From Candidatus Iainarchaeum sp. (GTDB lineage Archaea; Iainarchaeota; Iainarchaeia; Iainarchaeales; CSSED10-239), in contig JAQVTI010000019.1 of NCBI GenBank assembly GCA_028700115.1, positions 1 through 10,627 on the forward strand: a stretch of 10,627 nt of DNA, written 5' to 3'. Below are positions 1-10,627 of the stretch, piece after piece. The notes under the pieces are model-generated. The model had not been told where the DNA came from, did not search any database, and saw nothing but the letters and a program-made list of their open reading frames with translations. Within the stretch, counting starts at the first letter, position 1, and each line of letters starts with the position of its first letter. The translations under genes and the position numbers were made by a program.

Positions 1-1054
1 CATTAATATATTCATTTAAAAAACAAACTAGCTTTGGATGTAAACTTGATTCAATTTCATCAATTACTAAAATTCCCCCTGCATTTATATGATGAACTAT
101 AGCTGCAGCTTTTTCAATAAATTCAATGGTGCCTTCTGATTCGTCTTCAAACAAATTAAATCTTTTGAATTTTAATTCATTATTCTTATCAAGATATTCA
201 TGAATTGAATAAAACTCATAATTTTCTTCTGATAATGCTTTTTCTCTTATGCTATTAGCTTTATCTATTCCTTCTTTTTCTTCTACATATTTTATAAAAT
301 AATCAAAGAAATCATTTTTGGTTATTGGATTTCCATTGTCTTTTTTATCAATTACAATATCTTTTATCTTAATTCCCACATTTTGTAACTTCGAAACTAT
401 ATCGGTCTTAAATTCCGGATTATTAATCATTATTTTTGGTAATAATATCTCATTTTCTCTCAAATTACTAATAAAACTCAATTTTTCAGCAATAAAAAAA
501 TATAGTGCCTTACATGCTTCGAAACCCCAATCTGCAGCAACTGACAAATACAATTTATTTTCATTTGTTCTTTTAGATAAAGTATCTTGTTCTTTTAGAT
601 TTATTCCGAATTTAAATTCTTGTTGATTTCTAAAAAATATTTCTTTTTGTAGACAGTTATCAGTAAGATATAAATATTCTTTATATATTTTATTTTCATC
701 TAATGAAAAGCCGTATTTGTATATTTTATTATCTATAAGAAGACTAATTTCAAATTCTGAAGGTTCATTAATTGTATTTTCATCTAATTTAAATGGTTTA
801 TATTTTAATTTTTTATTTAATTCAAATTTATTACTTGATACAATTAGATAATTTATATAATATAATGCTTCAATTAGATTAGATTTCCCTGAAGAATTAG
901 GACCACTAATTAAAATGGATTTAAGAATTTTAGGGTGTTTTTTATTTTTAGTAAAAATTATATTTTTATTTCCTTTATTAATTAATCTACACATAGATAA
1001 ATTTATTTCATTTTTTATAGATTTAAAGTTTTTTATTTTCAATTCTAATAACAT
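1..1054 (-). CDS. P-loop ATPase of the ABC/SMC-like AAA_21/AAA_15 type; the 3' end is cut by the window edge (351 codons visible)
   Basis: This gene is not in the supplied ORF track. I translated the minus strand by hand from ATG at 1054..1052, and it stays open for 351 codons down to position 2 (MLLELKIKNFKSIKNEINL...ILVIDEIESSLHPKLVCFLNEYIN). Motifs: Walker A GPNSSGKSN (878..904), ABC-signature-like SEGT (128..139), and Walker B plus H-loop ILVIDEIESSLHP (35..73). A Shine-Dalgarno GGTGA (1061..1065) sits 6 nt upstream of the ATG. The family call rests on motif recognition only. Confidence 0.8.
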   Translation of the reverse strand, partial: MLLELKIKNFKSIKNEINLSMCRLINKGNKNIIFTKNKKHPKILKSILISGPNSSGKSNLIEALYYINYLIVSSNKFELNKKLKYKPFKLDENTINEPSEFEISLLIDNKIYKYGFSLDENKIYKEYLYLTDNCLQKEIFFRNQQEFKFGINLKEQDTLSKRTNENKLYLSVAADWGFEACKALYFFIAEKLSFISNLRENEILLPKIMINNPEFKTDIVSKLQNVGIKIKDIVIDKKDNGNPITKNDFFDYFIKYVEEKEGIDKANSIREKALSEENYEFYSIHEYLDKNNELKFKRFNLFEDESEGTIEFIEKAAAIVHHINAGGILVIDEIESSLHPKLVCFLNEYIN

Positions 1055-1405: not shown

Positions 1406-2047
1406 TTACTTACTATTTAACCAATCACCAATTAATTTATCATATTTTGCGATTATTGGCTTTGATTCAGCAATTGGAATATTATAAGTTTCTCTTAACC
1501 AATAAACTAGTGGTTGTGGAATATAATTTACTTCTTCGTTATTATTTTCATCATCTTCAGAAAAAATAATCTGTAAATTAGTATTAATCATTTCTTCAGC
1601 AACTTCTAAATCCTCATATAATTCTTTAAATTTATCGGGATTTATTTTTGATTTATCTACAACTAATAATAAAACTGCACAAGGATAATTATCAAAAAAA
1701 GCATTTATCTGTTTATCTTTTACCCCTGTATTATCTTCAAAAATACCCGTTCTTCTATATTTAACTTCTAACAATTCGGGTTCAAAATTATTTTTAACTA
1801 TTAAAAAATCAGGCATTCTTCTTACAAAATCGAAAGAATTTTCAAACTTTGGATCTGAATATTTTAATTTAAAGTTTCCCCCGCACCGTTTTATAAAATT
1901 TTGTAATTGAGTAATTGGCTCTACCTGATGTTCTTGCCCATATTTCATTACAAAAAAACCTAGTTCTTTAAATAACTCATCAGCAATACATTCTGCAATT
2001 CTGCCTTTGATTGTTGCATTTATATCTCTTTCGACTGATTCAATCAT
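1406..2047 (-). CDS. Small (213 aa) predicted PD-(D/E)xK restriction-endonuclease-fold protein; last gene of the operon
   Basis: ORF track, 213 aa. The N-terminal half follows the Hjc/YraN-like pattern: helix KGRIAECIADELFKELGFFV (E19), then RRMPDFLIV (P79-D80, nt 1808..1813), then ELLEVKYRR (E94-x-K96, nt 1760..1768). The C-terminal half is acidic (SEDDENNNEE). The start ATG overlaps the methyltransferase stop (ATGA, 2044..2047). An SD GAGGG (2054..2058) lies 6 nt upstream. The fold call rests on the motif pattern only. Confidence 0.6.
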   Translation of the reverse strand: MIESVERDINATIKGRIAECIADELFKELGFFVMKYGQEHQVEPITQLQNFIKRCGGNFKLKYSDPKFENSFDFVRRMPDFLIVKNNFEPELLEVKYRRTGIFEDNTGVKDKQINAFFDNYPCAVLLLVVDKSKINPDKFKELYEDLEVAEEMINTNLQIIFSEDDENNNEEVNYIPQPLVYWLRETYNIPIAESKPIIAKYDKLIGDWLNSK

Positions 2048-5000
2048 TTTATGCCCTCTTCAACAATCTTAATCTCTTCAGGAGTTAATTCATATAACTT
2101 ATAAACCAATTGATCAATCTCTTTTTCTAACCTCTTAACTTTAGCTTGTTTATCTAGATTTTTCAGATAATCTTCATCTTTAGTAATTAACAAAATTTGA
2201 TCAACTAATTGAATGAACGGTTTTTGCTTTTCAGGAGATATTTGTTTGATTGGAATTTCTTTGACACTAGGAATATCAAAACCTAAATAACCTCCTGAAA
2301 GATGTTTACTCTCGAATTTAGTATAATACCAATAACTCATTAAAGATGAATTCAAAATGCTAATTAAAAACTTAGAATTTATTAAAAAATCAGTTAAAAT
2401 ATTTACTTTACCACCATAGTATTCTTGAGGAACTAATGTGCACCTTATTTTTTTAGTCATTCTAGCAAAGAATATTTTTTCCTTTTTGAAATTATTCTGC
2501 ACATTAATCGGAAAAATTTCTTTTGGAATGTAACTATTTAAATCCTTTAAAACATATTTTAAAATATTAGATGATTGTATTACTAAATTATATTCTTCTT
2601 TTTTTGTTTCAGAGAGACTAAAAAATTCTTTTTCTTTTATTATTTTTTTTCCAAAACCTCCTGCTGAAGTGCCACAAAAGATATTACAAAAATCAATTAA
2701 TTTAGTACTAATTGCAGAAACTTTACTAATTATTTTATTTTCTTCAGTTACTGGAATTCTATAATTATCTTCTTTTACCGATTTTTGTTCAATCAAGAAA
2801 CCGCTCTTTGTTAATTTATTTAAATTATCACATCTTACTATTTCAATATTATTATCAATATTATTTTTTATAAATAAATTTATACAAGTATATGTTGAAG
2901 CTTCTGCAAAGACTTTAATATGTGATACATCAACAATTCTTTTTATAATATAATTTTCAACCAATAATTTTCTTATTCCCAACCCTGAATCTGCAGATAA
3001 GTATTGATACGGATTAATATAAGCTAAGATAGAGTTTTTACGAAGAACAGACATACCCAATTCTATAAAATATACATAAATACTACCTGTTTTTGTAGTG
3101 TTATATATCTCAAAATTATTTAATCCTGTTCTTGTAGTTTCATCAATTTTTCTATAATCTATATAAGGTGGATTTCCAATCACAACATCAAATCCAGGAT
3201 TTTCTCTTTGAAAGACTTCTGCAAAATATAATTTCCATAAAAAGAATGGTTTGCTTTTGCTTTTCATAATTGAATCAAGTTTTTTTATAGCTTCGTCATT
3301 TCCTTGCTGTTTAAGTGTTGCTTCAATTAATTCCCATTCTAATTCTTCAATTTCTTTTTTTAATTGTTTTTTAGTATCTCTATCAAATGAATTAAAAAAT
3401 TCTTTTTGTTTGGCTTTCAGTTTATTTAATTTTATTTTTGCTTCGTCTCTTGTTACTTTATCAAAATTAGTTAAAGTCAAGTTTGTATTTTTAATCTCTG
3501 GTTTTGCGGTTAATTTATTCTTTTCTCGTTCTAATTTCTTAATGGATTTCTTTAATTCTTCTTTATTGGCTTTTGATTTTCCAGTCTCTATTTGCCCAAT
3601 TTGTAAGTATAACGAATTGATCTCCTTATCAATTCTATCAAGTTCTGGTTTAATATCTTTAATTTCTTCTCCAAGAAGTAAATCATCAAATAATTTCATC
3701 CCTTCAAATTCTTCTAACAAACTATTTCCACACATAATTTTATTGTCTAAATTAGGAAGTGGTTTTATTTTCTTTCTATCAACTTCATCAACCACCAAAG
3801 AAAGCCAAAATCTTAATTGACAAATATCTACTGCAGATGGCATAATATCTACACCATAAAGAGAATTTTCTATACATTCTCTTTTTATTTCAGAAATATC
3901 TCTATCTGTTTCAAAATAAACGGATAATATAGAACGAGCCTTCACAATCTCATTCATCATTCCAACAGGAAATGCACCTGAACCAACAGCGGGATCAACC
4001 ACCTTAATTGTTCTCAACAATTCATCAACAAGTTGATAATTTTCTTCAATTGATTTAGGAATTACATATTCTGAATCAACACCATAGACTTTCCCATGAT
4101 ATTTTTTCTTATGTTCTTGTGCTTTAATTGTTTGGTCTAAGTATTTATCTCCTTCTTGAATAAACTTTTCAATATCTGTTCTAGGAATTGAAGAATTTGT
4201 CTCTAAATAATTTATCAAAGATTGCTGACACATGTAATGAACTATCTCTCTAGGAGTATAAAATGCACCAATTGATCTTCTATCGGTCACTTCTAATAAA
4301 TTCTCAAATACTTTACCAAGCATTTCAGGGTCTACTGCAACTTCTTTTTCTAAAGGTTCATCTTCTTTTACTGTGAAATTAAATTCATCAAAAGTTCTAA
4401 AAATATCTTCAAATATAGAATTTTCAATGTAAATATTAGTATTCATCCAATCATAACCATCAAGCGGCTCAAATAATCCACCATTTAAGAACGGAATTTT
4501 GCAATCAAACTTATCTGAAAAATCATCATTTCTTTTTATTGCAAGAGTATTATAAAATAATGGTTCTAAAACATCATTAAAAAAATTATTATAAGAACAA
4601 TATTCTCTATTAAATAATCTTTTCATAAAATCTTTTGGGCCGGTTCCCCAATCTCTAAATTTTCCTAAATCATCTTTTTTTACACCAAGCCAACCTTTTT
4701 TTTGTAAGAAATATAAGAAAACTATCTGCCCTAGTAGCTTCTTTGAAAATTCCACAACATACTTTTCAAGATTTTCTTCTCCTGCAACATTAACAAACTC
4801 TGTTTTAACCACTGCATTATTTTTAATGACTTTCTCCAAAGATTCTTTTAAATCCAAAAATCTCTTTTTATACTCTTCAAAAAATTCTTTAGTGACTTTT
4901 TCAATTCCAAAAGATTTTTCAATTTCTTCAAATAAAGGATCGTGGTCGCTAGATAATAAATCTACGAATTGTTTTTTACAAGTGTGATTTGGTTCGTTCG

Positions 5001-5466
5001 GACCTACAAGATAAGAATATCTTTTTGCAGGAGTCAGCTCTTTTTTTGCTTTAAGATTGCCTTTATCATCCTTAATTAGATTATATTCTAATTTTACAAA
5101 TGAAAATCGCCAGTCTTTTTCATCATCATAAAATGCGACAATTGCCCCCTCTGGTTCATCGGAATTTTTTACAAGCCATTTAGCAATGAAATTTCTTTGC
5201 ATAGTTCTTGCTCTTTCAAGAGAAGAATGTTTTGCAAGCTTTATAGCAAGAAATTCCATAGATTTTCCTGCTTTATCTTTATATTGTCCTAATTTTTCAA
5301 CCTTTAATATATAATCTCTAAATTCTCCCTCTACAAATTTGGTTTTATCTTGAATATTAAGATCTGAATTCTTTACTAACTCTTTTAAAAAGTTTAAAAA
5401 CTTTAAAATATCAAATTCAGAATTAAATGTTTCATCTAATAACCATTTTGCTTGTTGTTCGTTCAT
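2044..5466 (-). CDS. Large Eco57I/PglX-like gamma-class N6-adenine DNA methyltransferase with a C-terminal TaqI_C-like target-recognition domain
   Basis: ORF track, 1140 aa. Motifs: helical N-terminal region with LLGQIVFLYFLQKKGWLG and IPFLNGGLFEP; motif X GAFYTPREIV; SAM-binding motif I VVDPAVGSGAFP (3967..4002); YGVDIMPSAVDICQLRFWLSL; catalytic motif IV GNPPY (NPPY at 3163..3174). The C-terminal specificity region includes HLSGGYLGFDIPSVKEIPI and ends with IDQLVYKLYELTPEEIKIVEE, a tail typical of this family. I see no convincing PD-ExK or HNH motif in this protein. Confidence 0.85.
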   Translation of the reverse strand: MNEQQAKWLLDETFNSEFDILKFLNFLKELVKNSDLNIQDKTKFVEGEFRDYILKVEKLGQYKDKAGKSMEFLAIKLAKHSSLERARTMQRNFIAKWLVKNSDEPEGAIVAFYDDEKDWRFSFVKLEYNLIKDDKGNLKAKKELTPAKRYSYLVGPNEPNHTCKKQFVDLLSSDHDPLFEEIEKSFGIEKVTKEFFEEYKKRFLDLKESLEKVIKNNAVVKTEFVNVAGEENLEKYVVEFSKKLLGQIVFLYFLQKKGWLGVKKDDLGKFRDWGTGPKDFMKRLFNREYCSYNNFFNDVLEPLFYNTLAIKRNDDFSDKFDCKIPFLNGGLFEPLDGYDWMNTNIYIENSIFEDIFRTFDEFNFTVKEDEPLEKEVAVDPEMLGKVFENLLEVTDRRSIGAFYTPREIVHYMCQQSLINYLETNSSIPRTDIEKFIQEGDKYLDQTIKAQEHKKKYHGKVYGVDSEYVIPKSIEENYQLVDELLRTIKVVDPAVGSGAFPVGMMNEIVKARSILSVYFETDRDISEIKRECIENSLYGVDIMPSAVDICQLRFWLSLVVDEVDRKKIKPLPNLDNKIMCGNSLLEEFEGMKLFDDLLLGEEIKDIKPELDRIDKEINSLYLQIGQIETGKSKANKEELKKSIKKLEREKNKLTAKPEIKNTNLTLTNFDKVTRDEAKIKLNKLKAKQKEFFNSFDRDTKKQLKKEIEELEWELIEATLKQQGNDEAIKKLDSIMKSKSKPFFLWKLYFAEVFQRENPGFDVVIGNPPYIDYRKIDETTRTGLNNFEIYNTTKTGSIYVYFIELGMSVLRKNSILAYINPYQYLSADSGLGIRKLLVENYIIKRIVDVSHIKVFAEASTYTCINLFIKNNIDNNIEIVRCDNLNKLTKSGFLIEQKSVKEDNYRIPVTEENKIISKVSAISTKLIDFCNIFCGTSAGGFGKKIIKEKEFFSLSETKKEEYNLVIQSSNILKYVLKDLNSYIPKEIFPINVQNNFKKEKIFFARMTKKIRCTLVPQEYYGGKVNILTDFLINSKFLISILNSSLMSYWYYTKFESKHLSGGYLGFDIPSVKEIPIKQISPEKQKPFIQLVDQILLITKDEDYLKNLDKQAKVKRLEKEIDQLVYKLYELTPEEIKIVEEGIK

Positions 5467-6797
5467 TTTAACTCATACCACACATTATTTCCAGCACCTT
5501 TTTTAACTATCCTATTATTTTCAATTAAATAATTTAAGTCTCTTGATGCTATTTCTCTACTAATATTAAATTTAGATTGTATTAATTTACTCTTTATTTT
5601 TTTATTTTCTTCTAAATAAGAAATTATCCAATTTTGTCTTATTAACGGATTTGTGTCAACATTTGTGTCAACATTTGTGTCAACATTAACATTTGATTTA
5701 CTTCTATAGAAAATAACGCTAAAACCATATTCTAAAACTTCAAACTCAACTTTGACACCTTGAGAAGCACACTCTTCATATATCCTACGAAGCCCCGAAC
5801 CCCATTTCTCAACATCTTCACTTAAAAAAAGAATATTTGCAATTAAAGGATTACGCAAAATAGAAGGCAAGTCTTTTTTTACAAAATCAATGGGTTTATA
5901 TCCTTCGGGAAAATTACCAGGATTCCAAATTTCAACCCTGTCTTTATAAATTGCAATCTTATTACTTTCAGGAGCAGTATAATCTCTATGACAAAAAGAA
6001 TTAACCAATGCTTCTTTTAATGCACGAATAGGAATTTCTGGAATTTCTATTCTTTTACTTCCAGATAGATCTGCTCTCCAATTTATACGCTCTTTAATAT
6101 ATGATTCACAACTTTCAAGCAATTCTACAATATTTCCTTCATATTGTTTTATATCTAAAAAAGTCATTTTTGTGGTTCCTGCAAAAACGGCTAATTGAAC
6201 TTCAACAGGTTTATTTTTTGAAAATAATACAACAGACGCATTAGTTAAAGAATTATTTTTAATTAAATTTAACTTTTCTAAAATTTCTTTTACTGATGTA
6301 AATTTATAATTTATTCTTTTAGATGTATTTGCTTTATCCAAATAATTCTTCAATGTTCTTTCAGAAATAGACTTAATTTTTTCAATAGCTTCAAAAGAAT
6401 CCCATTTTAATTGACTTTTTTGCTGTATTCGTTTTTCAATTTCTTTAGCAGACATAATTTTATCTTCATCTGCAATCCTAATATATGCTCTTCCAAAAGC
6501 ATAATATATCGGTTCATTACCTATAAATTTTACAACAATACAATCTTTATTATTTATTTTTGCTTTTTTAATTTCAGGATAAATTTTTGGTTCAATTGAA
6601 TTAGCTATTTTTTGAGAAATATCTCGTAATGTTTTTTCAGACACATCTTGACCTAAAACCTCGCCTTTAGGACTAATCCCAAAAATTAATTCTCCAGAAC
6701 TATGTTTGTTCAAAATTGAAACTATTGAATTAATTGCTTCATTCAATTCAGATGTTGATCTCTTCAATTCTAAAATTTCTGATTCAACATATTTCAT
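5463..6797 (-). CDS. COG2865-type protein: N-terminal AlbA_2 (Schlafen-like, divergent AAA) domain, RecG-C-like HATPase_c_4 domain, C-terminal winged HTH
   Basis: ORF track, 444 aa. The N-terminus YVESEILELKRSTSELNE...GELIFGISPKGEVLG is the hallmark opening of AlbA_2 domains. IRALKEALVNSFCHRDY...IEIWNPG...LRNPLIANILF...VEKWGSGLRRIY matches the HATPase_c_4 pattern. The C-terminus IISYLEENKKIKSKLIQSKFNISREIASRDLNYLIENNRIVKKGAGNNVWYELK looks like a wHTH. SD GGAGA (6808..6812) lies 10 nt upstream. There are ATGA overlaps at both ends. Confidence 0.8.
   Translation of the reverse strand: MKYVESEILELKRSTSELNEAINSIVSILNKHSSGELIFGISPKGEVLGQDVSEKTLRDISQKIANSIEPKIYPEIKKAKINNKDCIVVKFIGNEPIYYAFGRAYIRIADEDKIMSAKEIEKRIQQKSQLKWDSFEAIEKIKSISERTLKNYLDKANTSKRINYKFTSVKEILEKLNLIKNNSLTNASVVLFSKNKPVEVQLAVFAGTTKMTFLDIKQYEGNIVELLESCESYIKERINWRADLSGSKRIEIPEIPIRALKEALVNSFCHRDYTAPESNKIAIYKDRVEIWNPGNFPEGYKPIDFVKKDLPSILRNPLIANILFLSEDVEKWGSGLRRIYEECASQGVKVEFEVLEYGFSVIFYRSKSNVNVDTNVDTNVDTNPLIRQNWIISYLEENKKIKSKLIQSKFNISREIASRDLNYLIENNRIVKKGAGNNVWYELK
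5651..5686. repeat. Perfect 12-bp tandem repeat (TTGTGTCAACAT)x3 inside the COG2865-type gene, encoding (NVDT)3
   Basis: Read directly: the units are 5651..5662, 5663..5674 and 5675..5686. Partial repeat-like flanks extend it to about 5649..5692. It is in frame and encodes SNVNVDTNVDTNVDTNP, the linker between the HATPase_c_4-like domain and the wHTH. Confidence 0.9.
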
Positions 6798-9700
6798 TTT
6801 ATAAACATCTCCGACAAAATTACTTCTTTAGGCCCTTCAATATTTCCTGAAAAACTTGCATAAGTCTCTTTAAAAAATTCAGAATGTTCTGGAATAATCA
6901 CTCTAATTTTTGCAAGTATTTTTATAGGATTAATGTCTTCCTTTTTAATTGCATCATTTAATTTTTGAAGTGTTTTTTTTGTTATCGAACCATTTTGAAT
7001 TAAATTTAATATACTTCTTAAATATTCTTCATCATCATCAGTTAATCCTATGGGTTTTTTTATCATCGCCTTTATTACAGCTTTAATTTTTCCTTCATGA
7101 CCTCTATTTCCTAAATTTTGAGCATCAACCTCTTTAACAAAGAAATCTGAAAATTCTTTTTTGTTTTGCTCTAATAATTTATAAAAATCATCATTTAATT
7201 TCATTTTTTTATCTAATTTTGTTGCACAAAGTAAATTAACTGCTTCAGAAAAATCAATCTCATTAATAATACCCTCATTATTATAATATAATTTTCGCAA
7301 TTTCCCTTTTTTAAAAAAAGTAAACAATCCAAACATACCTTCTTTTTTCCTACCAGTTCTTGATTTTTTTGGAAGTCTCTTTATTTTTTCAAATAATTCT
7401 GAATCAGTATCTCTAATATCTCGTAATTTTAAAAGCCATTCTAATTCAGAATCTTCCGTTGCATCTTCTCCAGTTACAATTTCTTTAGAATTTAATCTTC
7501 TAAATAATTCATGAGATTTAATCTCTTCATCTGTCAATAATTTTGCATCAGCACCAAGCATTTCTATAAATGATTGAATTTTTACCTCTGCAGCTTCAGT
7601 CAATCCCATTTGATCATTTATCGGGCCTGCGGGAAAAAGATTATAAGTATAAATTTCATCAAAAGGAAGATTTTTTCCAACTCTATTAATACGACCAACT
7701 CTTTGCATCATTCTTATAGGATTCCAGGGTATATCGTAATTTATTACAACATTTGACCTATTTAAATTCACCCCTTCTGACAATATTTCAGTAGTTACTA
7801 AAATTCTGACATCGTTTTTCTTTATTCTTGAAGCAGGATCAAAATTTTCTATAATTCTCTCTCTTATTGATTCTCCTGATGTACTTGAATAAGCTAAAAC
7901 TTGATTACTAAAAATGGGATTTAGCTTTGATTCAAGATATTCAGCAGTTTCTTTTGATTCAGTAAAAACAATCAATTTATTTTTTTTAAGATGTTTATTC
8001 TTCTTTAGAACCTTAATAAATTCTTCAAGTTTTGGATCCGTCTCAACATTCCGCCACATTGCTTCAATTTCATTTAAAATTTTTACGTCTGATTTTAAAT
8101 CTTCAATAAAATCTTTATTAAATTTATCTGCAGGTTCTTTTTTTGCTTTTTCTGCATCTATTAATTTGTCAACAGCATCAATATCATCATCTTCTAATAA
8201 TTCAAAAACTTTAGATGTATATTTTTCGCTGATAAAAACATAACCCTTTTCGTATTCTTCTAAAAATCTTTTATATGAATAAATAAATCGTGAAATTGAT
8301 TTTTTAAAAGCATAAAAACTACTTTCTAATCTTTTTAATAGCAAAATTTTCATCCATCGCCCCATGTTTCTTTGTGGGGTCTGTTGATTTTCAGGAAGCT
8401 CTTCCTTTAAATAAAGTAATGGTGTATAACGAGAATATTTAAAATCCTTTACAACTAATTTTAACGTCTTATTAAAAATATCGTCAACATCATCTGAAAA
8501 ATTATATATTACTGCTTCAGGTTCTTTTACTTTTGGGAAAACCAATTTTTGTTTTTTTAGATCTTTACTATAATATTTATCAATAATTGTTCTTGTTCTT
8601 CTAACCATTAAATATTGTAAAACATTATCTCTAATATCTTGAGCATTTTCTTTTACAACTTTTAAATATTCTTCTTTATTATTTTGTCTATGAAGAGTTT
8701 TTAATTTAGCCTGTAATCCTTTAAAATATTTCTCCAAATCTCTTACTTTAGGATTTGGAAGCGTAGATTTATGTGAATTTTGAAATAATTTAATTAAAGC
8801 TAAAATATCCTGAGGAGTATTGTTTAAAGGGGTCGCAGTTACTAATATTACTCTTTTCCCTCTGCAGATTTTATATAATTGTTCGTACATTTGTGTTGAT
8901 TCTGTTCTAAATCTATGGGCTTCATCAATAATTACATTTCGATATTTATCTGTGCCTCTTTTTAAAACTTGATCTAATTTACCAATAGATTCAAATTCTG
9001 CTTTATTAACCCCAAATTCAAAAAAAGCATTTTTCCAAGAACCGGGATTATTTTTATCTAAAAGAATTGGTGGCGCTAAAACTAATGTCCCACCGTCCAA
9101 TTGTTGAGCAAGCATAGTAGTCATAAATGTTTTTCCAAGACCCACAACATCAGAAATAAAAACACCACCATACTCTTCAAGTTTCATTTTAGCATCTCTA
9201 ACAGCATCCTTTTGATATTCTAACTCCATAAAATTTTCTGGTTTATATTCATTTCTTATTTCTTCTTGATCTAATTGGATTTTATCTTTAAGAAATTCAT
9301 ATAAAAATTTCAAAAATAATTCATAAGGAGGTATTTCATCATTAAGCCATGTATTAGTTTTTATAATTTCAACATACTCTTTAGACACATCTATGGAATT
9401 ATCCCATAACTCATTAAACTTATTTAATGCATAATCATAATCTCTACTGTCTTTAAGTTCTACATTAAACTCTAAATTGTCTTTTAGTCCTGCTTGCGTA
9501 AAATTACTAGAACCTGTAATTACTCTCCCTTTATCTCCAAAGCCCCCGCCATTTGAAGTCATAATATATAATTTTGCATGAATTCGTCCAGTAGGATAAA
9601 CACGAATTTCTAATTTCTTTGATTTAAGCCACTCTATAAATTTTAAAATACCTTCTTCAATATTTTTTGAATCTTTAGAATTATTCATTTCTTCAACAAC

Positions 9701-9994
9701 TTTTTCTGAAAATTGAATTTTTGCTTCTTTACTTGAAAGCCCTAATTGTTGTTGGAGATTAGAATGTTCAGCTTCTTGAATTAAATCAAAAGTCTTATTA
9801 TCTGTGCTAATTCCAATTAAAATCCGTATTTTTTCTGTTGTTTCAAAAGATTTATACATTTCATAAAATCCACTAGTATAAAAATATCCAACTAAACAAT
9901 CAAAAAACTTAGTTCCTTTTGTAAGAACATTAAAACGATCTATAAGCTTGTGCCCATCTTCATTTGTTATGAATTTTGTGTCTGTAGAATTCAT
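6794..9994 (-). CDS. Fusion protein: N-terminal PLD-family (single HKD) nuclease domain plus SNF2-like SF2 helicase/translocase; first gene of the operon
   Basis: ORF track, 1066 aa. The HKD-type motif is RIHAKLYIMTSNGGGFGDKGRVITGSSNFT (H139, K141, GSSN 161-164; nt 9503..9580). Helicase motifs: I GLGKT (9128..9142), Ia LVLAPP, II DEAH (8915..8926), III LVTATPLNN, SNF2-typical YLMVRRTR, V TTEILSEGVNL, VI QRVGRINRVG (7676..7705). The last ~275 aa contain no motif I recognise. Confidence 0.85.
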   Translation of the reverse strand: MNSTDTKFITNEDGHKLIDRFNVLTKGTKFFDCLVGYFYTSGFYEMYKSFETTEKIRILIGISTDNKTFDLIQEAEHSNLQQQLGLSSKEAKIQFSEKVVEEMNNSKDSKNIEEGILKFIEWLKSKKLEIRVYPTGRIHAKLYIMTSNGGGFGDKGRVITGSSNFTQAGLKDNLEFNVELKDSRDYDYALNKFNELWDNSIDVSKEYVEIIKTNTWLNDEIPPYELFLKFLYEFLKDKIQLDQEEIRNEYKPENFMELEYQKDAVRDAKMKLEEYGGVFISDVVGLGKTFMTTMLAQQLDGGTLVLAPPILLDKNNPGSWKNAFFEFGVNKAEFESIGKLDQVLKRGTDKYRNVIIDEAHRFRTESTQMYEQLYKICRGKRVILVTATPLNNTPQDILALIKLFQNSHKSTLPNPKVRDLEKYFKGLQAKLKTLHRQNNKEEYLKVVKENAQDIRDNVLQYLMVRRTRTIIDKYYSKDLKKQKLVFPKVKEPEAVIYNFSDDVDDIFNKTLKLVVKDFKYSRYTPLLYLKEELPENQQTPQRNMGRWMKILLLKRLESSFYAFKKSISRFIYSYKRFLEEYEKGYVFISEKYTSKVFELLEDDDIDAVDKLIDAEKAKKEPADKFNKDFIEDLKSDVKILNEIEAMWRNVETDPKLEEFIKVLKKNKHLKKNKLIVFTESKETAEYLESKLNPIFSNQVLAYSSTSGESIRERIIENFDPASRIKKNDVRILVTTEILSEGVNLNRSNVVINYDIPWNPIRMMQRVGRINRVGKNLPFDEIYTYNLFPAGPINDQMGLTEAAEVKIQSFIEMLGADAKLLTDEEIKSHELFRRLNSKEIVTGEDATEDSELEWLLKLRDIRDTDSELFEKIKRLPKKSRTGRKKEGMFGLFTFFKKGKLRKLYYNNEGIINEIDFSEAVNLLCATKLDKKMKLNDDFYKLLEQNKKEFSDFFVKEVDAQNLGNRGHEGKIKAVIKAMIKKPIGLTDDDEEYLRSILNLIQNGSITKKTLQKLNDAIKKEDINPIKILAKIRVIIPEHSEFFKETYASFSGNIEGPKEVILSEMFIK

Positions 9995-10063: not shown

Positions 10064-10627
10064 TTATAGTTGATCTAGTTTATTTAATATTTCTCTATCT
10101 TCATAATAGTGTTCAGATTGATCTTGTGTGTAGTGGGCCGAGATTGTAGGATATTCAATATCTGGATTGTTTTTTGATTTTTCATTATATAACCCGTTAT
10201 AATTCTTTACATGACCATGAACATGTAGTTTAAAATTAAATCTCTCTTTAAACATAGTTATATCATAACTACCTAAATATGTAAATTTATTTGTACTAGG
10301 ATGATGTGATATAAAAATGGTATTTCTTGCTAATTTAGATAAATTAGATAGGCTAGGTTTATGCTCCGGTTTTAAAAACAAATTATAATAACATTTACAT
10401 TCAGAATCGCTTTTTTGAGATATTCTATTTACCCCAGTAACATAAATTTTAGATCCTAATTGTATTAATTCTAAATCGTTTGGAAAATAAATATATTCAT
10501 TAATTTTTTTCCCATTAGGGAAAATAAATTCTTTGCTTATTTCAGAATCATGATTCCCTTTATAACAGATTATAGGAATACCTAATTTATTACAATTTAC
10601 CATAAATTCATAAAAATCAGCTATTCT
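10064..10627 (-). CDS. Calcineurin-like metallophosphoesterase; the 5' end (N-terminus) lies outside the window
   Basis: ORF track, 179 aa from an internal Met. The frame stays open to the window edge (RIADFYEF precedes MVNCNK), so the true start is upstream. Motifs: GNHD (10547..10558), FISHHP, and LHVHGHV (GH-type metal motif). The first two family motifs (DxH, GD) would lie beyond position 10627. Confidence 0.6.
   Translation of the reverse strand, partial: RIADFYEFMVNCNKLGIPIICYKGNHDSEISKEFIFPNGKKINEYIYFPNDLELIQLGSKIYVTGVNRISQKSDSECKCYYNLFLKPEHKPSLSNLSKLARNTIFISHHPSTNKFTYLGSYDITMFKERFNFKLHVHGHVKNYNGLYNEKSKNNPDIEYPTISAHYTQDQSEHYYEDREILNKLDQL

Follow-up and report, generated by a model that had tools for sequence, protein, structure and literature searches.

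The stretch of DNA considered here, called the window in what follows, is the whole of contig JAQVTI010000019.1 from the archaeon Candidatus Iainarchaeum sp. (assembly GCA_028700115.1; 10,627 nucleotides, nt), its own flanks beyond the contig ends lying outside the reading. All its genes are on the minus strand. Among them are four co-directional open reading frames (ORFs), p1 to p4, which encode 1066, 444, 1140 and 213 amino acids (aa) and are joined by three ATGA overlaps, as a first-pass annotation of the sequence had described. That annotation took the four genes together for an undescribed defence system akin to restriction-modification (R-M). The present analysis points to a smaller functional unit: with a probability of about two in three (0.68), p1 and p3 constitute a two-gene, ATP-dependent R-M module, while p2 and p4 are optional cargo. 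The genes and their junctions are as follows.

6794-9994, minus strand: p1, 1066 aa; putative core gene 1 (effector)
6794-6797, minus strand: ATGA overlap, p1 stop and p2 start
5463-6797, minus strand: p2, 444 aa; facultative passenger or accessory gene on a 1331-bp cassette
5463-5466, minus strand: ATGA overlap, p2 and p3
2044-5466, minus strand: p3, 1140 aa; putative core gene 2 (modification and target recognition)
2044-2047, minus strand: ATGA overlap, p3 and p4
1406-2047, minus strand: p4, 213 aa; lineage-specific add-on

The four ORFs are real genes rather than chance reading frames, since p1, p3 and p4 have NCBI protein records at 100% identity and the p1 and p3 families have thousands of homologues each (more than 7800 for p1). 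For the exact sequence of p2, no record was found on look-up. The G+C content is about 26% throughout the window, and at third codon positions it amounts to 13-16% in p1, p2, p3 and p4.

The two core genes and their linkage

The p1 protein combines an N-terminal nuclease domain of the PLD (HKD) superfamily with a motor of the SNF2 type. All its Pfam matches lie above the gathering cut-offs: PLDc_2 (aa 52-197; 46.6 bits, cut-off 27), SNF2-rel_dom and ResIII (aa 258-505; ResIII 37 bits, cut-off 22.5) and Helicase_C (aa 655-773), with an additional match of the PLD domain to RE_NgoFVII (29 bits, cut-off 23.8). Every family expected in the first-pass annotation was recovered above its gathering cut-off, the helix-turn-helix (HTH) of p2 staying below, and the motifs that it had located (the HKD and SF2 set of p1, NPPY in p3 and PD...ExK in p4) are all in place. 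The features of p1 are these.

9404-9841, minus strand: PLD domain (PLDc_2), aa 52-197
9572-9580, minus strand: HKD motif, H139-A-K141
9500-9514, minus strand: GSSNF, aa 161-165
7676-9223, minus strand: SF2/SNF2 ATPase core, N-lobe aa 258-505 and C-lobe aa 655-773
9128-9142, minus strand: GLGKT, aa 285-289
8915-8926, minus strand: DEAH, aa 357-360
8819-8839, minus strand: TATPLNN
7676-7705, minus strand: QRVGRINRVG, aa 764-773

The HxK...GSxN signature of the PLD superfamily lies inside the PLDc_2 domain, and the Walker A, DExH, motif III and motif VI elements of SNF2/SF2 proteins accompany SNF2-rel_dom and Helicase_C. In 21 homologues that are 60-78% identical, H139, K141, G161-S-S-N164, GLGKT, DE.H and Q764-R771 are invariant. 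There is one HKD motif per chain, as had been noticed before; the sole other H.K is at residue 668, within the Helicase_C region. By analogy with BfiI, SauUSI and MtsD, in which a PLD site is shared by two chains, this would imply that the active site of p1 is formed by dimerization. MtsD, the PLD-SF2 protein of the MANTIS system discussed below, is dimeric (bioRxiv 10.64898/2026.09.23.753747). No DNA-recognition domain is recognisable in p1 in the Pfam scan. Searched against the PDB, the single p1 sequence retrieved generic helicase lobes only and a p1 profile did not reach SauUSI, nor was there a sequence match to SauUSI at the thresholds applied.

The p3 protein has the make-up of a gamma-class N6-adenine methyltransferase with its own specificity domain, and both Eco57I and TaqI_C match it above the Pfam cut-offs. 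It can be divided as follows.

4027-5466, minus strand: family-specific N-terminal region, aa 1-480 (alpha/beta domain, aa 1-160, then a helical region)
4471-4485, minus strand: NGGLF, in the helical part of the N-terminal region
4252-4263, minus strand: FYTP, in the helical part of the N-terminal region
3970-3999, minus strand: motif I, VDPAVGSGAF, aa 490-499
3232-3699, minus strand: K/E-rich insertion of about 150 aa, aa ~590-745, between motif I and NPPY
3163-3174, minus strand: NPPY, aa 765-768
2227-3126, minus strand: hypervariable specificity block, aa 781-1080, including TaqI_C

A profile of the p3 family retrieves from the PDB CamA (2e-44), M.BseCI, PglX (8C45; 2e-21), BrxX (9EWZ; 2e-17), M.TaqI and BpuSI. 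These matches are confined to profile positions 753-1143, and for the first 750 residues or so the same search gives no solved relative. The N-terminus is 40-50% identical across phyla, tracking the identity of p1, and aa 1-480 are plausibly a candidate docking region for p1. The Eco57I match extends over aa 534-853, that is 320 residues on a model of 171 positions. The K/E-rich insertion is also present in the family consensus and, read by eye, may be helical or coiled-coil.

The C-terminal part of p3 behaves differently from the remainder. Compared with its relatives in two metagenome loci, L091 (on a 76-kb contig) and L104, p3 is 65-100% identical over aa 1-780 in bins of 60 aa, with 12 of the 13 bins at 78% or more; identity drops to 13-38% over aa 781-1080 and is back at about 80% over aa 1081-1140. 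The specificity block is swapped between copies with conserved flanks on both sides, since a collapse of identity bounded by conserved sequence is the expected signature of recognition-domain exchange in R-M systems. Silent or invertible copies of the target recognition domain (TRD), of the shufflon type, were sought in the window, and just chance AT-rich repeats were found.

To follow the linkage of the two genes, p1 homologues were aligned and the alignment was used to retrieve 80 loci, with up to 10 kb of flank, from one-genome-per-species contigs. Of these loci, 60, from many bacterial and archaeal phyla, encode a PLD domain together with a helicase part. A p3-type methyltransferase was found by tblastn in 49 of these 60 loci (on the same strand in 47 and within 300 nt in 27), and by transitive clustering in 4 more. 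In five of the seven loci that are left (L005, L013, L024, L032, L051), the contig ends within about 700 nt; a sixth, L047, has a partial methyltransferase ORF at the contig edge, and the seventh, L042, has no p3-type methyltransferase in its roughly 2 kb of flank. When every ORF in the approximately 60 loci was clustered all against all, no other neighbour family extended beyond a handful of loci. In IMG/VR, all 15 close relatives of p1 have p3 directly downstream, and p2 or p4 accompanies none of them. A reciprocal search anchored on the N-terminus of p3 found p1 upstream in 11 of 13 informative loci. In the closer clade p1 precedes p3, whereas in the distant clade the order is often reversed. 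The linkage is near-obligate, and the conserved unit consists of two genes.

Both families reach up to 60% identity across DPANN archaea, candidate phyla radiation (CPR) bacteria and relatives of methanogens, and distant copies of the module reside on Thermus and Thermococcus plasmids. Complete genomes with the pair include those of Algoriphagus lutimaris KCTC 22630 (L020), Clostridium guangxiense (L037), Paraclostridium bifermentans (L027) and Fervidobacterium thailandense (L056). Across 40 loci, the identity of p1 to its window copy rises and falls with that of the p3 N-terminus (Spearman 0.82), as would be expected if both are inherited as a unit, part of the correlation being due to shared phylogeny. 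Mobile-element genes adjoin close relatives of the module: an ArdC-N/Peptidase_M78 gene in L087 and L088 (L087 8687-9502) and a DDE transposase in L085 (5361-6200). Such neighbours fit a horizontal spread.

The strongest competing explanation for p3 comes from PADLOC, where its profile REase_MTase_IIG (PDLC03596) covers the full length of the protein from residue 1 with an E value of 2.4e-178. According to this explanation, p3 is a self-sufficient Type IIG enzyme with a nuclease of its own at the N-terminus, and p1 is a separate defence nuclease, for example a modification-dependent one of the SauUSI kind, that happens to share the operon. The first 160 aa are indeed modelled as a confident alpha/beta domain; the AlphaFold2 (AF2) predicted local distance difference test (pLDDT) value reaches about 90 over aa 1-80 and lies mostly at 77-88 from there to aa 130. 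A Type IIG enzyme unites nuclease and methyltransferase in one chain, yet no catalytic set of acidic residues and lysine resembling D...(D/E)xK is conserved in aa 1-160 of p3 among 36 diverse members, and Foldseek gave no nuclease match for the N-terminal model in the PDB (best E 0.055, to unrelated folds). For these two reasons, the profile match probably reflects how relatives have been labelled and not a demonstrated nuclease; lacking a conserved PD-(D/E)xK motif in its N-terminal domain, p3 would therefore need a nuclease in trans. Moreover, p1 has no recognisable recognition domain of the SauUSI kind, and the two genes are almost always neighbours on one strand, frequently overlap, and have identities that co-vary. 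On balance, a Type IIG enzyme beside an independent p1 seems unlikely.

Facultative genes p2 and p4 and other cargo

The p2 protein is of the COG2865 type, with SLFN_AlbA_2 and HATPase_c_4 domains above the Pfam cut-offs (58.5 and 62.2 bits), two matches to a C-terminal HTH below them, and a match to PDB entry 3LMM (2.4e-5) in a single-sequence search. In the closest relative of the window, L085 (p1 89% and p3 90% identical), p2 is absent and p3 starts at the very ATGA that ends p1. Likewise, p1 is followed directly by p3 in L086 (p1 78%) and in L087 and L088 (p1 77%). The uninterrupted p1/p3 junction of L085 (position 10139) reads caaaATGAa, against taaaATGAa at both the p1/p2 and the p2/p3 junction of the window, and the octamer AAAATGAA occurs at both ends of p2 as well as at the L085 junction. 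Since that junction matches both p2 ends, p2 is an insert of 1331 bp placed exactly at the p1/p3 junction. These matches suggest that cassettes are exchanged at translationally coupled junctions through microhomology.

A metagenome scan with p2 retrieved the same arrangement as in the window in L091 (p1 90%, p2 89%, p3 70% identical) and, in L104, a p2 fragment about 900 nt upstream of p1 (89%), with p3 (84%) directly following. Unrelated COG2865 genes, 22-23% identical to p2, adjoin distant p1 relatives in L042 and L053. Most relatives of p2 have no p1 or p3 nearby. Thus p2 is facultative and mobile in position, yet it recurs more often than a random neighbour, and p2 cassettes have entered this operon family more than once. 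Four p2-like COG2865 genes that are 25-63% identical stand in tandem on one metagenome contig (L096 281-7287; L097 3703-10709), with no p1 or p3 nearby.

The p4 protein has no match in Pfam, NCBIfam or PADLOC. Its motifs are these.

1991-2005, minus strand: GRIAE
1805-1813, minus strand: PDF (P79-D80)
1760-1768, minus strand: EVK (E94-V95-K96)

A word-indexed search gave 5 homologues, and a full hidden Markov model (HMM) search 263 cluster representatives, of which about 30 are full-length and close. Among 52 diverse members of the family, none departs from E19, P79, D80, E94 or V95, and conservation of K96 is 90% or more, which bears out the PD-(D/E)xK signature that had been read from p4 in the first-pass annotation. 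Family members match TnsA_N, DpnII, VRR_NUC, NERD, Hjc and PDDEXK_11 weakly in Pfam. The AF2 model (pLDDT 76.5) has its elements in the order expected for an alpha-beta-beta-beta-alpha-beta core; the top Foldseek matches in the PDB are Hjc resolvases and restriction enzymes (best E about 0.02, none significant), and a single-sequence PDB search returned nothing. From these sequence and model features, p4 is accepted as a predicted member of the PD-(D/E)xK superfamily.

A methyltransferase end followed by p4 is repeated in one other contig only, L002 (2 kb). Elsewhere, a p4 homologue stands beside housekeeping genes without p1 or p3 (L001) or 3.4 kb upstream of p1 (L087 5971-6579), and in L091 three different genes occupy the place where p4 would be expected. 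A gene of 199 aa behind the L087 methyltransferase was considered as a further p4 homologue and rejected (BLASTP E 2.5). It follows that p4 is facultative and that its link to the p1-p3 module is weak. The p4 homologue P0002 (L002 183-713) is 81% identical to p4 over aa 1-155, but its C-terminal half aligns instead with the homologue from L087, so that this small nuclease appears to be a recombinant.

These distributions bear on the proposal, contained in the first-pass annotation, that all four genes form one obligate system with p2 as a DNA-binding adaptor or sensor and p4 as a second nuclease. Such a system would agree with the three ATGA overlaps that join p1 to p4, with the p1-p2-p3 order found again in L091 and the methyltransferase C-terminus and p4 in L002, and with the recurrence of COG2865 genes in L042, L053 and L104. 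It is contradicted by the direct succession of p1 and p3 in L085, L086, L087 and L088, by the other genes at the p4 position in L091, by the p4 relatives away from p1 and p3 in L001 and L087, and by about 75 other p1-p3 loci that contain neither p2 nor p4. When the conservation of the four-gene neighbourhood was checked, p1 and p3 were the only constant partners in the genome loci as well as in IMG/VR. The four genes therefore do not hold together as one system, and an obligate role of all of them is quite improbable.

Other copies of the module harbour different cargo. RhuM genes lie beside or inside it in L007 (11692-12297) and L033 (17018-18067), and it is accompanied by a DUF4268 gene in L048 (9039-9974), by a GmrSD_N gene in L049 (16830-18680), by a HATPase_c_3 protein in L087 and, on a Thermococcus profundus plasmid, by an AbiEii/AbiGii toxin gene with an upstream partner (L090 6319-7948). 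In L091, a Type II methyltransferase and an HNH gene precede the module and a PDC-S39/DUF4209 candidate follows it. Similar cargo is common in Type I R-M operons.

This context also helps to judge whether the p1-p3 pair could be a module for epigenetic regulation or DNA maintenance instead of defence, in which the methyltransferase would regulate and the SNF2-PLD protein would serve repair or remodelling. The closest solved relative of the catalytic and TRD part of p3 is the orphan methyltransferase CamA, and SNF2 proteins often work without cutting DNA. However, the distribution of the pair is patchy, with 50-60% identity across domains of life and copies on plasmids and IMG/VR contigs; the specificity block is hypervariable; the module lies among defence genes; and known defence or toxin genes (RhuM, AbiEii, GmrSD) are embedded in other copies. 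A purely non-defensive function is very unlikely in view of these observations.

Known systems and a possible mechanism

The closest characterized analogue of the p1-p3 module is MANTIS (Gao_RL; the Type-2, DUF499-centred, BREX-related system of MtsA-D). Both have an effector in which a PLD/HKD nuclease at the N-terminus is joined to a helicase-like SF2 ATPase of the Swi2/Snf2 type, a likeness that for p1 consists in architecture and remote homology only. The PADLOC 'HKD+Snf2' model C3a139 covers aa 16-800 of p1 (E 1.9e-47). The difference lies in the partners: methylation by MANTIS depends on MtsA, a DUF499 AAA+ ATPase, and on MtsB, a small protein of the DUF3780 family, whereas the window contains neither in a Pfam scan and no such conserved neighbour exists near p1 relatives. 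The family of MtsB is written DUF3870 in bioRxiv 10.64898/2026.09.23.753747 and DUF3780 in PMC12839542. p3 is of the Eco57I/TaqI_C type with a family-specific N-terminus of 480 aa, and the likeness to MANTIS described here is that of the effector. In MANTIS, restriction requires the dimeric PLD-SF2 protein MtsD together with all four Mts proteins, and exchange of the methyltransferase TRD switches specificity (bioRxiv 10.64898/2026.09.23.753747). With a PLD-SF2 effector and a TRD-switchable specificity, MANTIS is therefore the best experimental precedent. The related Hma (Type-1 BR) does not fit, as HmaA is an Snf2 helicase with a PD-(D/E)xK nuclease at its C-terminus and HmaC is a DUF499 ATPase, while here the PLD domain is N-terminal and DUF499 is absent; the PADLOC HmaA match is limited to aa 551-774 of p1.

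In terms of its workings, the module would come nearest to a Type ISP or Type III enzyme that is divided in two and equipped with an effector of the MANTIS type. In Type III, Type ISP and MANTIS alike, cleavage depends on how the sites are oriented. Type ISP enzymes (LlaGI, LlaBIII) also bring together a nuclease, an SF2 motor, a gamma-type adenine methyltransferase and a single TRD. A further trait expected in common is an asymmetric site that becomes hemimethylated. Membership in Type ISP is rejected, since that type is a single chain with an Mrr-type PD-(D/E)xK nuclease and here there are two proteins with a PLD nuclease; the profile of the p3 family did not reach the LlaBIII and LlaGI chains in the PDB. 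In Type III systems, Mod unites methyltransferase and TRD, and Res unites an SF2 ATPase and a nuclease; p1 matches ResIII. Type III Res carries a C-terminal PD-(D/E)xK nuclease, and Mod is a beta-class methyltransferase. Here, the PLD domain is N-terminal, the motor is SNF2-like and p3 is gamma-class (motif I before NPPY, Eco57I/TaqI_C), so that this membership is rejected as well.

The remaining comparisons concern single proteins. Type IIG enzymes (Eco57I, BpuSI, MmeI and the Cj0031 family) share the profile over the length of p3, and BpuSI and TaqI its catalytic and TRD part, but they have their own nuclease in the chain; p3 lacks a conserved nuclease motif, and its near-constant partner p1 supplies nuclease and motor. 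SauUSI and CglI/NgoAVII resemble p1 in coupling a PLD nuclease to an SF2 motor. SauUSI, a Type IV enzyme, recognises methylated cytosine through a TRD of its own (bioRxiv 10.64898/2026.09.23.753747), and CglI has its PLD nuclease and its helicase-like ATPase on different proteins (PMC5737866). The class 1 DISARM system uses the same families, namely PLD (DrmC), SNF2 (DrmD) and an Eco57I-like adenine methyltransferase (DrmMI), although PLD and SNF2 are separate proteins there and are fused in p1. BREX PglX/BrxX has a catalytic and TRD region homologous to that of p3, to which CamA and M.BseCI are closer.

Another explanation would make the window part of a named system of greater size, be it class 1 DISARM, BREX or MANTIS/Hma, with the other core genes off the contig, the ends of which are only 1.4 kb and 0.6 kb beyond the operon. 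In this vein, p1 matches the DrmD, HmaA, BrxH and C3a139 models and p3 those of DrmMI and PglX, the partial PADLOC matches to DrmD and DrmMI having E values of 1.6e-33 and 5.3e-30. The scores are far under the curated NCBIfam cut-offs, however: 132 bits against 610 for DrmD, 22 against 133 for DrmC_I, and, for p3 as a PglX equivalog, 65 against 500 (NF033452), 47 against 900 (NF033455) and 34 against 400 (NF033451). The DISARM core genes DrmA (a YprA-like helicase) and DrmB (DUF1998) are missing from the window, from the conserved neighbours in about 60 related loci and from the stretch fetched for L091, which comprises 4.8 kb upstream of p1 and 4.5 kb downstream of p3. The BREX genes PglZ and BrxC/PglY are absent from the window and from the conserved neighbourhoods, and there is no BrxA/B or BrxL. 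The absence of both cores, noted for the window in the first-pass annotation, thus extends beyond it. Within 8 kb on each side of the p2 match in L091, only the Type II methyltransferase, the HNH gene and small or unknown genes occur. No further conserved neighbour appeared over the approximately 60 loci with up to 10 kb of flank, and the large neighbours tested in L048 and L050 match no Pfam family, DUF499 included. That the window is a piece of one of these systems is extremely improbable.

A scheme for the p1-p3 module can be outlined from its motifs and from these analogies. p3 would correspond to the Mod subunit of Type III systems, or to the half of a Type ISP enzyme that contains methyltransferase and TRD. 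With its C-terminal specificity block it would recognise a short, probably asymmetric sequence, at which p3 would methylate an adenine and so mark self DNA. p1 would act as Res with no recognition domain of its own. Where p3 is bound to a site that is not methylated, it would probably recruit or license p1, plausibly by way of the first 480 aa of p3; p1 would then translocate on double-stranded DNA by means of its SNF2-type motor and ATP, and two p1 chains together would form the PLD active site that cuts. p2 may modulate the system or act as a sensor, or it may be a defence gene in its own right that the operon carries along, and p4 would be a lineage-specific PD-(D/E)xK nuclease. The part of the earlier proposal that saw an R-M-like locus, a methyltransferase marking self and a PLD-SNF2 protein as ATP-driven effector fits the evidence from linkage, motifs and block exchange.

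Several points weigh against this two-gene interpretation. For the p1-p3 family, methylation, restriction and a complex of the two proteins are predictions from sequence and analogy. The full-length agreement of the p3 family with the Type IIG profile leads some curators to regard p3 relatives as self-sufficient R-M enzymes, and the argument against an N-terminal nuclease draws on missing motif conservation and an uninformative fold search. p3-like genes also exist without p1: the p3-family gene of L195 (6815-10486) has just the last 60 or so codons of p1 upstream, and L202 has a full p3-like gene (3217-6780) plus a second, N-terminal fragment. L195 looks like a decayed module that has left an orphan methyltransferase. 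p2 is present in three of the seven closest copies, counted by contig, which is above the expectation for a random passenger, and it may matter in this clade. Finally, methylation in MANTIS needs an AAA+ loader and a co-regulator, and a two-protein system may differ in this respect or need host factors.

A bolder and more tentative proposal, for which the chances are somewhat below even, is that the p1-p3 pair represents a distinct and very widespread class of ATP-dependent R-M systems, a split Type ISP with PLD in place of Mrr, whose methyltransferases have been mislabelled as Type IIG and whose ATGA junction serves as a docking point for swapped modulating cassettes. In the literature searched, with incomplete coverage and REBASE outside it, no paper names or tests the p1-p3 pair; the sole mention is a table entry of Milman et al. 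2023 (PMC9881135), where a Type II R-M coding sequence (Cj0031-like) stands next to a PLD plus SNF helicase coding sequence. Against the PADLOC protein models, p3 was matched as Type IIG, p1 gave partial or remote matches only, and p4 none. The word 'undescribed' used in the first-pass annotation thus holds for the naming and testing of the pair, and has to be qualified by the Type IIG match, the table entry and the logic already demonstrated for MANTIS.

If the two-gene interpretation is correct, a single minimal R-M system driven by a motor would account for thousands of genes in bacteria and archaea, DPANN and CPR lineages among them, as well as on plasmids and viral contigs, whose present labels are 'helicase-related protein' and 'Eco57I/Type IIG methylase'. 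A methyltransferase alone, without an AAA+ loader, could then suffice as the partner of a MANTIS-like PLD-SF2 effector, and censuses of defence systems that count these methyltransferases as Type IIG would be corrected. For studies of mechanism, the pair would furthermore be a compact ATP-dependent nuclease that can be programmed through its TRD. The cassette inserted exactly at the ATGA junction illustrates, on a small scale, the way in which cargo is acquired by defence operons. To a restriction-enzyme specialist, the module will come as no surprise, but it is abundant, apparently uncharacterized, probably mis-annotated and testable.

The remainder of the window

The operon is bordered by the following.

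10064-10627, minus strand: metallophosphoesterase gene, cut by the right contig end
1055-1405: intergenic gap of about 350 nt
1-1054, minus strand: AAA ATPase gene, cut by the left contig end

Rfam and tRNA scans were empty over the whole window, and in the AT-rich spacer at 1055-1405 Rfam, tRNA and repeat scans gave no match and no significant repeat. The metallophosphoesterase gene is calcineurin-like (Pfam Metallophos, 27 bits, cut-off 21.5) and ends 69 nt upstream of p1; a PADLOC search with it gave no match. The AAA ATPase gene, 3' of the operon, matches AbiLi in PADLOC (E 1.2e-46) and, more weakly, AriA, HEC-01A and PtuA. By these matches, it looks like a second, separate defence-type gene, and the contig looks like part of a defence island.

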